In this document: positions 11,200 to 58,659 of the stretch, piece after piece
Layout of the letters: every line of letters starts with the position of its first letter
Position numbering within the stretch: position 1 is the first letter of the stretch
DNA from: a virus
DNA: 64,000 nt
Direction: 5' to 3' (one strand)
Virus record (IMG/VR): IMGVR_UViG_3300042567_000108
Coordinates: 1 to 64,000 of that record
Notes under the pieces: generated by a model
Told to the model about the DNA's origin: nothing
Databases searched by the model: none
Seen by the model: only the letters and a program-made list of their open reading frames with translations
Made by a program: the position numbers and the translations under genes

Positions 11200-11460
11200 T
11201 TAATTGTAGTCTAAATACAACTGGCGTGGAATTATATTAAGTTTTCTACGCATGTCCTTGCGCTGATACTCGGTGGTATTGCCCCAGTATCCCATGACTT
11301 CATGCTTTAGGGCATAGTCTAGACACTCATTAACTACTGGGCAGGCACCGCATATCTTGCGAAGCATACGTATGTTGGGGTAGGTACTTGCTTTTTCTTC
11401 TGTGAAGAAGGCTTCAGGGTCTGAGTTAGCACAGTTAGCCTCTTCTCGAAATGCGTACAT
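11200..11460 (-). CDS. whiB: WhiB-family transcription factor
   Basis: C...C--CPV--EC with GYWG turn; start moved to MYAFRE. Confidence 0.85.
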   Translation of the reverse strand: MYAFREEANCANSDPEAFFTEEKASTYPNIRMLRKICGACPVVNECLDYALKHEVMGYWGNTTEYQRKDMRRKLNIIPRQLYLDYN

Positions 11461-17651: not shown

Positions 17652-17669
17652 ACGTCTCCCTTGTTAATA

Positions 17670-17732
17670 GGTTGGGGAGCAGGAACAAGGAGAGAGCCGA
17701 AACCCTGCCACCCCAACCCACTCATCATAACA
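17670..17732 (-). promoter_or_regulatory. Extended -10 promoter (TGT-TATGAT) and 5' hairpin for the replication operon
   Basis: 17732-17724; stem GGTTGGGG/CCCCAACC starts at the expected +1. Confidence 0.55.
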
Positions 17733-17741
17733 TAGCAGGGG

Positions 17742-18122
17742 CTATGCGTTGATGTCATTGCCACAGTGAGGGCAAAGTTTTTCTCGTTTCTTGTAGACTT
17801 CATGTATCACTTGGTCTTTAAAGTTTTGATGCACATATATCTTGCATCTGTTGCGTGCTTTAACAGCACGTACTATAGCACCTGACTGGTGCAGTACTGA
17901 CAACACACCACTAGCAGTGCCGTGATGCCAGCCTGTACCTTCGGCTAATTCTTTCCACGTCATACCATGTACACCTGCTAGTTTTAAATATGATAATGCT
18001 CTAGCCTGGTTGTTTGCTTCTTGTCCTGATGCAACATTATCTATAGCACGAGCCTTAGATGTATCAGTACCTGACCATCCAGCCGTACCTTTGTATGGTC
18101 TATAAGGTACGTATTCTGCCAT
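17742..18122 (-). CDS. Winged-HTH-like protein with C-terminal CxxC
   Basis: G-TWKELA...TASGVLS-L; CPHCG. Confidence 0.6.
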   Translation of the reverse strand: MAEYVPYRPYKGTAGWSGTDTSKARAIDNVASGQEANNQARALSYLKLAGVHGMTWKELAEGTGWHHGTASGVLSVLHQSGAIVRAVKARNRCKIYVHQNFKDQVIHEVYKKREKLCPHCGNDINA

Positions 18123-18541
18123 TAGTCTTCTTCTTCCATATCATGTACTTCAATCTGGTCAACCTCAATGTCGCCATCATAGAAGTCAACTGTTACGTTG
18201 TCTGTAAAGATAGTCTCGGCATCATCTGCATCTTCTGCATCTACGCTGAAGGTACCAGTGATTGTGTATGTAGCACTGTATCTTGTTGTAAGTTTGTTGG
18301 CACCAATGGATTCAAGTAACTCATTGACATCTGACTTTGTGATTGTTGTTTCACCATCACTCCATTCACACTCACTGAAGAAGTCACGGACTTTATAAGT
18401 ATTACTAATCCTTTGTGCGCGGTCTTCTGATGCACTTGCTTGGATTGCATTTACTTCGCCTGCTTTCTCAATGAATCGAATTACTTCTGACTCAGTGTAG
18501 TTTACAACACCATCTACTGTGTTAATCTGGATTGTGTTCAT
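18122..18541 (-). CDS. Acidic hypothetical protein
   Basis: SD GAGAGG; coupled ORF. Confidence 0.75.
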   Translation of the reverse strand: MNTIQINTVDGVVNYTESEVIRFIEKAGEVNAIQASASEDRAQRISNTYKVRDFFSECEWSDGETTITKSDVNELLESIGANKLTTRYSATYTITGTFSVDAEDADDAETIFTDNVTVDFYDGDIEVDQIEVHDMEEED

Positions 18542-18561
18542 GTGTTCCTCTCGTTGTTTAG

Positions 18562-18648
18562 TGTCCCGTGTGCGCTACTGGCGGGACAACCCAGTAAAAG
18601 GCAGCAACTGTATAGGAAATGAACGAAACTATACAGTAACCGTGCGCA
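18562..18648 (-). ncRNA. Putative three-way-junction plus pseudoknot RNA element
   Basis: TGCGC/GCGCA, ACTGTATAG/CTATACAGT and TACTGG/CCAGTA stems; loop TGTCCCG pairs with 3' CGGGACA. Confidence 0.55.
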
Positions 18649-18666
18649 TTTACCCGATAGGTAAAC

Positions 18667-19674
18667 CTATACTAGCAGAGATAAAGCCTTAGTCTTTACT
18701 CTGTCATTGCGTCCACTAAGGGTGGCGGCTGCAAGACGTTCAGCGCCGCCCGTTGCATAGTGGTCAGCAAATTCTACCACTGCATGCCATGCACCAAAGG
18801 CTGTGCCTCTGATGTTCTCTTGTGTTTCTGATTCGCTATAGATAGACCATGCTTTAGCACGTGCATCTTTAGCAATGGTCTGTTGCTTGCGTTCACCACG
18901 TGTGAGCAAATCGTATGGCTTATCTTCAATGGTAGAAGGTAGTGCCCATACTGACTTGAAGAAGTTAATTGCTTGCTCACGTGAGAAGTCAATGCCAAGC
19001 AGACGATTGGCTGTTAACTCGTAATCATCTATAGCCTGATATGTAAGGTTAGTAATGTTACGGATGTCAGCAATAGATAACTCTTGGTTAGTAGTGTGTG
19101 ACATACGGTATGTGTACTCATTGTACTTACGCTTTTGATTGTTACTAATCAAACCGTTGACCTGATTAGCACAGAACAAACGCTCAATGATTGGCTTGAT
19201 AACAACAGATGATGAGCCATCATGTGATGTCTTTACTAATAAGAATGCAGCGTGTGGGTCATTGGCTACCGAGATACCACGAGGTAACTCTAGTACCATC
19301 CAGATGTTAGAGCCACCATTAAACTCACCTGCTGCTGCATAGCGTGCATCACCTGCATCTACTAGTGTATCTAATGCGTTAAAGACTTCCATGTTTTGTA
19401 CTACTTTATACTTAGTACCAACAATACCAATGACTGAGTTGTTATCCTCACGGATAATAGCCTGCTTTTTTGGTACATCTATGTATGTGGCTGGTGTTAC
19501 ACCATGCTCATCAATAGATAGGGGTGTACTTACTGCTTGTAGTTCACCTGTGCGTACAGTCCAGTTAAGTCCTGCTTGTGTGGCTGCACTTGCAGCAGAG
19601 GTAGCCTCCACTGCTGTGCCACCACGTACCCATGCTGAGCGGTGTTTACTTGCTACTGTCATGTGCTTCTCCAA
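18667..19674 (-). CDS. DUF932 (LGT_TIGR03299-like) protein
   Basis: AGLNW-V, Y-VVQN, SHDGS, R-FC-NQ and GTAFGAW-A--E--DH motifs. Confidence 0.85.
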   Translation of the reverse strand: MEKHMTVASKHRSAWVRGGTAVEATSAASAATQAGLNWTVRTGELQAVSTPLSIDEHGVTPATYIDVPKKQAIIREDNNSVIGIVGTKYKVVQNMEVFNALDTLVDAGDARYAAAGEFNGGSNIWMVLELPRGISVANDPHAAFLLVKTSHDGSSSVVIKPIIERLFCANQVNGLISNNQKRKYNEYTYRMSHTTNQELSIADIRNITNLTYQAIDDYELTANRLLGIDFSREQAINFFKSVWALPSTIEDKPYDLLTRGERKQQTIAKDARAKAWSIYSESETQENIRGTAFGAWHAVVEFADHYATGGAERLAAATLSGRNDRVKTKALSLLV

Positions 19675-58333: not shown

Positions 58334-58659
58334 TTGGTAGTTGCCCTTACTCTGTGTGCGAAGTTAATCATAGACCTGCGATTGTTCCATGTTAATGGGA
58401 CAGATGCAAGTAGGACACGCTCACCAGGTAGAGTGCCTCCCCAAATACCATTGTCTAAGTTCTCTCGTTTCATACCCTCAGTAAAGCATTCAGCCTTGGC
58501 TGGGCATGCGTTACAGATAGATAGCGCGGTCTTTACGTTAGCGATACGTTGCTTGTACTCTGGACTATTTTCATTGACGCGATTGTTCTCAGCGTCGCTG
58601 TCGATAGACTCGCTGAACCATAGGTCAGGGTTCTCATGACCTGTGCATAGACCTTGCAT
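58330..58659 (-). CDS. whiB: WhiB-family transcription factor
   Basis: C...C--CP---EC and GIWGG. Confidence 0.85.
   Translation of the reverse strand: MQGLCTGHENPDLWFSESIDSDAENNRVNENSPEYKQRIANVKTALSICNACPAKAECFTEGMKRENLDNGIWGGTLPGERVLLASVPLTWNNRRSMINFAHRVRATTK

Follow-up and report, generated by a model that had tools for sequence, protein, structure and literature searches.

A structured RNA element of 86 nucleotides (nt), encoded on the minus strand at 18563-18648 of a 64,000-nt stretch of uncultured phage DNA (positions 1 to 64,000 of IMG/VR virus record IMGVR_UViG_3300042567_000108; hereafter the window), belongs to a widespread and well-supported RNA family that has no entry in Rfam, documented here by 118 distinct variants, more than 340 candidate loci and covariation in three helices. 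The element combines a variable hairpin with a rigid H-type pseudoknot and is found in uncultured freshwater phages of Actinobacteria, where it lies between early genes. A sequence-only reading of the window had likened this region to the exoribonuclease-resistant RNAs (xrRNAs) of flaviviruses and proposed that it blocks RNase J or, failing that, acts as an unrecognised riboswitch or ribozyme. Among the functions we have weighed, we tentatively prefer a ligand-independent mechanical roadblock and insulator that would protect the downstream cistron in the manner of an xrRNA.

A family of pseudoknotted RNAs in phage contigs

The family was gathered from IMG/VR phage contigs. Searches of viral contigs with the two proteins flanking the window copy returned 79 and 40 related loci, and blastn showed the gap between the genes to be conserved, its 3′ half remaining ~80% identical even where the upstream DUF932 protein is only 57% identical. 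A 19-nt core pattern contributed at least 120 further stretches, and the exonuclease protein of one subfamily matched 341 loci, of which 80 were examined; the element is present in all 80 of these, although they were reached through the exonuclease protein alone. Part of the invariance of the core reflects ascertainment, because the search pattern fixed CCGCCA and GCGMACACGG; the protein-anchored sets, which are free of this bias, show the same core bases.

Read 5′ to 3′, the consensus comprises (N)CGC, A or U, the P2 hairpin, a variable linker, the P3 strand xyzUGG, loop L1 (G-U-K), the pseudoknot 5′ strand G-Y-N-C-C-G, the P3 3′ strand CCAz′y′x′, loop L3 (GCG-M-ACA) and the pseudoknot 3′ strand CGG-N-R-C. 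An invariant CGC thus precedes a variable P2, a P3 of 6 base pairs (bp) and a 6-bp pseudoknot between the P3 loop and the 3′ tail, with the linker GCG able to pair with the 5′ CGC as helix P1. P2 differs widely in sequence and length: the interval from CGC to P3 (P2 plus linkers) spans 21-97 nt, and in 115 of 116 relatives it holds a helix of at least 5 bp (median minimum free energy (MFE) z = -3.5). The P2 loop GUUYGUUCAUUUC (window 18616-18628, minus strand) is near-identical in exonuclease-type relatives, such as locus L159:3972-4058, despite wholly different P2 stems.

Covariation supports two crossing helices

We examined the pairing in two alignments. The first, a model-based alignment, holds 96 distinct sequences and is paired in 94.6% of its cells, compared with 29-45% for slid partners. 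Two-sided changes occur at 17 of 25 pairs, and the level of covariation was matched by none of 500 shuffles; such changes affect nine of nine pairs in P2, four of six in P3 and three of six in the pseudoknot. A MAFFT alignment, which was not fitted to the structure and is gap-free in the 3′ half, gives 99.4% pairing for P3 and 100% for the pseudoknot, with three two-sided pairs in each, and the P3 and pseudoknot pairs are exactly those that top an unsupervised scan of mutual information. Variants of the pseudoknot 5′ strand (GUCCCG, GCUCCG, GUACCG and GCACCG) each occur with matching partners. Since P3 and the loop-tail helix cross and each is supported by covariation, the pseudoknot is real; G-U pairs, found at the outer P3 pair in 32 of the 96 sequences, fit the coding strand only. 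Covariation, ~80% core identity against 57% for DUF932, and presence in every exonuclease-type locus examined together argue for strong selection on the fold.

P1 behaves differently. Its three CGC/GCG pairs are invariant, the fourth position pairs as U-A in 40 of the 96 sequences and as G-C in 19, with no pair in the other 37, and a compensatory variant was seen once (L092, GCAC/GUGC, a G-C to A-U change). Of the three-helix junction proposed in the sequence-only reading, P2 and P3 are firmly covarying, whereas P1 is weakly supported. MAFFT with RNAalifold on 52 members recovered P3 alone, because P2 varies in length, and a covariance model was needed. The window copy, too, is significant only through comparative data: folded singly, its nested MFE structure is three plain hairpins with z = -1.57, and the plus strand is worse.

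The window copy

Covariance model R1 matches the whole conserved element, from the P1 5′ strand through the pseudoknot 3′ strand, with 111 bits, and finds this one copy in the 79-kb record. All the helices described from the letters were recovered at their minus-strand positions by inspection and an inverted-repeat scan. P1 pairs UGCGC (TGCGC in DNA; 18644-18648), which contains the invariant family core CGC, with GCGCA (18571-18575). P2, in which every one of 9 bp covaries, pairs ACUGUAUAG (DNA ACTGTATAG; 18629-18637) with CUAUACAGU (DNA CTATACAGT; 18607-18615), and is followed by J2/3 (18597-18606), a linker of high entropy whose length and sequence vary throughout the family and which lacks Watson-Crick covariation with the 5′ flank. 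P3 joins UACUGG (18591-18596) to CCAGUA (18576-18581), is 99.5% paired with two-sided changes in four pairs, and abuts the P1 3′ strand without a spacer, as had been described. Within the P3 loop, L1 (18588-18590; G and U invariant) leads directly into the pseudoknot 5′ strand GUCCCG (18582-18587), which pairs with CGGGAC (18563-18568); the window copy adds a seventh pair, U18588-A18562, completing the match of TGTCCCG (18582-18588) to CGGGACA (18562-18568). L3, GCGCACA (18569-18575), supplies the P1 3′ strand with its first 3-5 nt.

The pseudoknot 3′ strand begins 2 nt past P1 and stops 9-10 nt ahead of GAGAGG (18547-18552), as the letters alone had suggested; this is the Shine-Dalgarno (SD) sequence of the downstream open reading frame (ORF), and it ends an A/C-rich, unstructured spacer (18547-18562 including the SD) of a design that recurs before unrelated genes in relatives. 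Three candidate contacts between the element and its ribosome-binding site (RBS) were considered and set aside: the P2 loops are U/C-rich (49% U), but shuffled loops match the RBS just as well; the complementarity of GUUCAU in the window's P2 loop to AUGAAC at the start codon does not generalise across the family; and the CCUUUU-GAGAGG pairing of J2/3 in the MFE structure of the window is not conserved in other subfamilies.

The element lies within the intergenic gap, a 125-nt interval (18542-18666, minus strand) between two minus-strand ORFs. Upstream is the gene of a 335-amino-acid (aa) DUF932/phrog_1221 protein (18667-19674); downstream is that of a 139-aa protein (MNTIQ...; 18122-18541) of no known family, whose start ATG lies at 18541. 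Right behind the DUF932 stop codon, the inverted-repeat scan also marks a hairpin, P0 (UUUACC/GGUAAA, 18649-18665, minus strand), an optional accessory outside the family core that covaries in relatives (UUUGUC/GACAAA, UUUACUC/GAGUAAA) and is missing in other gene contexts. P0 has no U-tract, and it travels with the 3′ end of DUF932 rather than with the element.

A rigid core

Whereas the P2 region ranges from 21 to 97 nt, the pseudoknot is almost fixed in its dimensions, a rigidity placed where a mechanical device would need it. L1 has 3 nt in 118 of 118 sequences and L3 has 7 nt in 114 and 8 nt in the other 4, and the P3 3′ strand always adjoins, with no spacer, the pseudoknot 5′ strand on one side and the P1 3′ strand on the other. 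The first pseudoknot pair accordingly closes a loop of 15 nt in 114 of the 118 and of 16 nt in 4, by a count on secondary structure rather than of a three-dimensional ring. These are the dimensions of an H-type pseudoknot, with a 6-bp stem 1, a 3-nt L1, a 6-7-bp stem 2, a 7-nt L3 and no nt between the stem 2 5′ strand and the stem 1 3′ strand.

The invariant bases cluster at the interface of P3 and the pseudoknot, in L1 and in L3, which are probably the places where mechanically stable pseudoknots make their triplex contacts. Only ACA separates P1 from the pseudoknot 3′ strand, a spacing that would keep P1 from extending the P3 helix in the closed knot; the junction would then be either sharply bent, as in xrRNAs, or a site at which P1 and the pseudoknot alternate.

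Distribution and host

Rfam yielded no match on the element, whether in gathering mode over the whole window, with E up to 10 on 18400-18800, or with E up to 1 on six related loci. Blastn against cultured phages gave chance matches of 19-24 nt and no copy of the element. Among 185,579 prokaryote genomes we found no true copy: a 27-nt pattern gave two matches (L240 and L241), both of which we regard as chance, since L240 fails the P3 and pseudoknot pairing on inspection and model R1 matches neither. Relatives of the element do occur in RNA-library contigs from several freshwater studies; breaks in such contigs at 18559-18561 and 18577 are mosaic junctions to other modules. The motif may be among the unnamed candidates in a 2023 catalogue of ~10,000 viral structured RNAs (PMC10690425).

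The source record has ~44% G+C, and its genes in the window's neighbourhood include those for DUF4192, a gp49-like protein and a PD-(D/E)XK exonuclease. A megablast of the 3.5-kb region found no cultured phage close at the DNA level. Because the record carries two WhiB genes ~47 kb apart (11251-11448 and 58414-58653, both minus strand) and its DUF932 protein matches mostly phages of Mycobacterium, Streptomyces, Arthrobacter, Microbacterium and Gordonia (at less than 31% identity), an actinobacterial host is a fair inference, and the earlier suggestion of one was reasonable.

Genomic context and companion modules

Throughout the family the element sits in gaps between genes on the same strand, 1-100 nt behind the upstream stop codon and, in most loci, 17-31 nt ahead of the next start codon, from which it is separated by the A/C-rich spacer and SD. 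What follows it is one of at least six unrelated genes, which encode the 139-aa MNTIQ protein, the PD-(D/E)XK exonuclease, DUF932, a 142-aa protein, a helix-turn-helix (HTH) protein and a 166-aa protein, all within the early replication and recombination block. Some contigs (L159, L176, L152) have two copies ~2.5 kb apart. Others carry tandem, diverged copies (L228:4005-4191 and L144:3278-3464), separated by a CCUAAC/GUUAGG hairpin in the 5′ untranslated region (UTR) of a 73-aa HTH gene and preceded by a promoter-like TTGACA-17-TATAAC (read by eye in L228); in tandem copy A the top pair of P3 is C-G instead of G-C. At three loci (L218:1149-1290, L184:3560-3693 and L126:2330-2460) a U-tract directly follows the pseudoknot 3′ strand, with promoter-like sites beyond it in L218 (TTGACA-17-TATACT, an 11/12 match) and L126 (TGGTATACT); here the element closes a transcription unit behind a short ORF.

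Other folded modules separate the element from the RBS in several loci, and in many relatives the same slot holds only a small H-type pseudoknot with the tail AUAAACUAC, or both modules in series. Judged by its letters, that tail resembles the coremin spacer GUUAAACUAC of plant RNA viruses (PMC10520033). The alternative pseudoknot, of ~27 nt (for example ACAC-CUGAGCAU-GUGU-AUAAAC-UGCUCA), lies just before a conserved SD in loci L007, L009, L017, L018, L021, L027, L028, L050-L057, L067, L069, L077, L078, L089 and L119; its stem 1 covaries (CCAC/GUGG, AUCAC/GUGAU, ACAU/AUGU), its loop UGAGCA or UGAGUA pairs with UGCUCA or UACUCA, and it has no match in Rfam.

Two further conserved intergenic modules join the element in varying order, cassette-like. 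One reads GUAUGCAUAC - CUGCUUAGGCAG - CGAUAGCGCGG; the other consists of AUAGUGAACCAGCGUAAGG, a hairpin and GAGAUGCAGGUAGUUUAUG, with a CAUA/UAUG closing stem. They stand after the element in L003, L014, L015, L037, L076, L088, L143, L194 and L219 and before it in L012, L026, L036 and L102, and an Rfam search with them gave no match. In the window itself, the leader of the exonuclease gene (17652-17741, minus strand) is a long hairpin of G-rich and C-rich strands (GGGUUGGGG...CCCCAACC) followed by AUUAACAAGGGAG and ATG; in more than 80 related phages the position of this hairpin holds the junction-pseudoknot element instead.

Comparison with known RNAs

The likeness to class 1 flaviviral xrRNAs proposed in the sequence-only reading extends to connectivity and loop size and stops short of the pseudoknot that, in those RNAs, joins the 5′ end to the junction (PK1). 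Shared features are a latch from the P3 apical loop to the 3′ tail (PK2), a P3 that runs straight into the P1 3′ strand and, to the extent that the weakly supported P1 forms, a three-helix junction. The latch is present in the element as 6 bp, 99.8% paired with three covarying pairs. Its closed loop of 15-16 nt, taken from secondary structure, compares with the 15-16-nt rings of all solved xrRNAs, which moreover often occur in tandem (PMC8374639), as the element does in L228 and L144, and the job we propose for the element by analogy, a block to 5′-to-3′ exonuclease, is theirs (PMC8374639). In vitro, bacterial RNase J1 is halted by the xrRNAs of flaviviruses (PMC8374639), and Actinobacteria use RNase J (PMC7917786, PMC6582357). 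By contrast, P1 of the element has 3-4 bp and its latch 6-7 bp rather than a few; the element resembles xrRNAs neither in sequence nor by covariance model, and it occupies an intercistronic gap before an RBS in a DNA phage rather than the 3′ UTR of an RNA virus. All exonuclease-resistant RNAs reported so far come from viruses that infect mammals, insects or plants (PMC12397905, PMC8374639), and our literature search found no report of one from a phage or bacterium.

Other small pseudoknots offer further comparisons. The T4 gene 32 leader pseudoknot precedes the gene of its own binding protein, whereas the gene downstream of the element differs between phages. The pseudoknot riboswitches preQ1-II, SAM-II/V and guanidine-III have the SD inside the knot and are found in the genomes of bacteria, upstream of genes from a single pathway. 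The element resembles their aptamers in its compact H-type knot, invariant bases at the helix junction and adjoining RBS, and differs from them in that its SD lies outside the knot, its genes are unrelated, and it has neither a bacterial copy nor an Rfam match. As in the T4 leader, an H-type pseudoknot stands 5′ of a phage gene, and an unstructured segment leads from it to the RBS of a gene of DNA metabolism (PMC10690425). The coremin motif, or xrRNA_C, of plant RNA viruses (Dilweg and Olsthoorn) is likewise a small pseudoknotted RNA, for which stalling of Xrn1 and of ribosomes has been proposed or shown (PMC10520033, PMC10321173). A knot that looks coremin-like from its letters, with the tail given above, replaces or follows the element in the same slot of related phages; the element has no sequence in common with coremin, from which it also differs in being three times larger and in containing a junction.

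A candidate roadblock in early messages

The data establish that this RNA folds as described, that it is conserved, where it lies and that only phages carry it; every part of the following proposal that involves nucleases is inferred. The compact knot would fold by itself within the early polycistronic message of the phage. Its core would be an H-type pseudoknot in which P3 stacks on the loop-tail helix, bridged by the 3-nt L1 and the 7-nt L3, and L3 would be clamped further by 3-4 bp to the upstream CGC strand, which the variable P2 brings in. Standing just 5′ of the RBS and acting without a ligand, such a knot would stall a 5′-to-3′ exonuclease (RNase J in Actinobacteria) that enters after an upstream cut in the message, so that the rear cistron would outlive the front one. 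It would also keep the A/C-rich spacer and SD clear of upstream pairing, and in the few U-tract loci the same knot could close the 3′ end of a transcript. We lean towards this roadblock, while granting it less than an even chance, because the geometry is fixed, the invariant bases lie where triplex contacts would, the genes behind it are unrelated and copies occur in tandem; because its slot is interchangeable with other folded modules, one of them coremin-like; and because it is confined to phages, while RNase J1 is stopped by xrRNAs in vitro and Actinobacteria employ RNase J.

Several observations weigh against a roadblock of the xrRNA type. Simple 5′ hairpins already protect bacterial mRNAs, which leaves the complexity of the element unexplained, and with only 1-2 copies per ~40-kb genome it is rarer than a general stabiliser might need to be. 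P1, which would make the junction, is a weak helix whose three invariant pairs are uninformative either way. For an equivalent of PK1, mutual information gave no Watson-Crick covariation of the 14-nt 5′ flank with the linkers J1/2 and J2/3 or with the core (J2/3 being aligned by position only), and this flank is unconserved. None of the xrRNA models of Rfam matches the element, even with E up to 10 (E up to 1 for related loci). The many invariant unpaired bases would suit a pocket for a ligand or protein, or an active site, equally well. The RNA-library evidence consists of contigs, which cannot show transcript ends or strand, and hence no protected 5′ end is visible. Finally, since Xrn1 is not stalled by frameshifter pseudoknots of the ordinary kind (PMC10321173), neither a knot nor compactness is by itself evidence of a nuclease block.

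Alternative functions

Rather unlikely in our view, though the strongest of the alternatives, is an operator or riboswitch, in which the knot binds a phage or host protein or a small molecule and tunes the start of translation at the RBS, which lies 9-15 nt further on, or termination where a U-tract follows; P1 and the pseudoknot may then be alternative states. The element gathers ~20 invariant, partly unpaired bases at one helical junction, an arrangement also seen in pseudoknot aptamers and in the operator of T4 gene 32. The usual ligand-pocket strands, J1/2 and J2/3, are nevertheless variable. The element does lie immediately 5′ of the RBS, and tandem copies occupy the 5′ UTR of an HTH regulator gene; yet the SD is never within the knot, no conserved alternative pairing was found, the pairing of J2/3 with the SD in the MFE structure of the window is missing in other subfamilies, and complementarity between P2 loops and the RBS equals that of shuffled loops (-6.12 versus -5.97 kcal/mol). 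In L184, L218 and L126 the pseudoknot 3′ strand runs into a U-tract with the look of a terminator-type platform, but these are three loci only, and the next gene in L218 has its own 11/12 promoter, leaving nothing there to regulate. The ACA spacing, by barring coaxial stacking of P1 and P3 in the closed knot, could permit a two-state switch, and a distribution limited to phages would suit a phage protein partner. For a metabolite the same distribution is awkward: to our knowledge the riboswitch classes known in phages also occur in bacteria, and no bacterial copy exists among the 185,579 prokaryote genomes, while the downstream genes have no common metabolic theme. Having no bacterial copy, no function shared by its downstream genes and no conserved expression platform, the element is less likely to be a metabolite riboswitch.

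The remaining possibilities we consider less probable still. A passive insulator or standby structure, with no nuclease or sensing role, would merely keep the RBS single-stranded and uncoupled from the upstream ORF, and it would explain why a long hairpin, the small pseudoknot and the element share one position before the same A/C-rich spacer and SD, and why the upstream stop codon can come within 1-2 nt of the dinucleotide ahead of the P1 CGC. A plain hairpin would suffice for that purpose, however, and invariant loop bases with fixed L1 and L3 in 118 variants indicate a precise tertiary fold; the element occurs, besides, at transcript ends and before promoters, and we judge such a role improbable. 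Equally hard to credit is a self-cleaving ribozyme of a new class that cuts the polycistronic message between cistrons and leaves a structured end. Phage and metagenome DNA commonly encodes small ribozymes of known kinds, and a small pseudoknotted junction with invariant loop bases, intergenic irrespective of the neighbouring gene and sometimes in tandem, is what one might expect of another; but no Rfam ribozyme model matches, even with E up to 10 (E up to 1 for related loci), the connectivity, as far as we could map it, matches none of the pistol, HDV-like, twister, hatchet or hammerhead topologies, no conserved candidate scissile dinucleotide lies outside the helices, and RNA-library contigs span the element (X2 record 4; X3 records 10 and 11), although DNA carry-over could account for these. 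Least likely of all, and very much so, is a role in transcription, as an anti-terminator RNA like put or EAR or as a structured terminator or 3′-end cap. The element just past the promoter-like TTGACA-17-TATAAC of L228 (read by eye), and the U-tracts that directly follow it in L184, L218 and L126, with the 11/12 promoter next in L218, would fit this, whereas more than 90% of copies precede an RBS rather than a U-tract, the majority sit far inside operons, although a single promoter-proximal site would do, no intrinsic terminator is found further on in the operon of the window, and there is no Rfam similarity to put or EAR.

Significance

A bolder form of the roadblock proposal, in our estimate doubtful, is that the element is a genuine xrRNA of a DNA bacteriophage, in which a 15-nt ring closed by the loop-tail pseudoknot stops the host RNase J, and that together with coremin-like knots and the other cassettes it forms a modular cut-and-protect system setting the relative lifetimes of cistrons in early messages. 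If true, this would extend xrRNAs for the first time beyond the RNA viruses of eukaryotes; a phage version directed against RNase J would show the strategy to be universal among viruses and would provide a compact, protein-free stabiliser for bacterial synthetic biology. Whatever its function, the element represents an RNA family new to Rfam, from an abundant group of uncultured freshwater actinophages, with a conserved, rigid core typical of RNAs that have a specific biochemical activity and a size, ~60-90 nt, that suits direct assay and structure determination.
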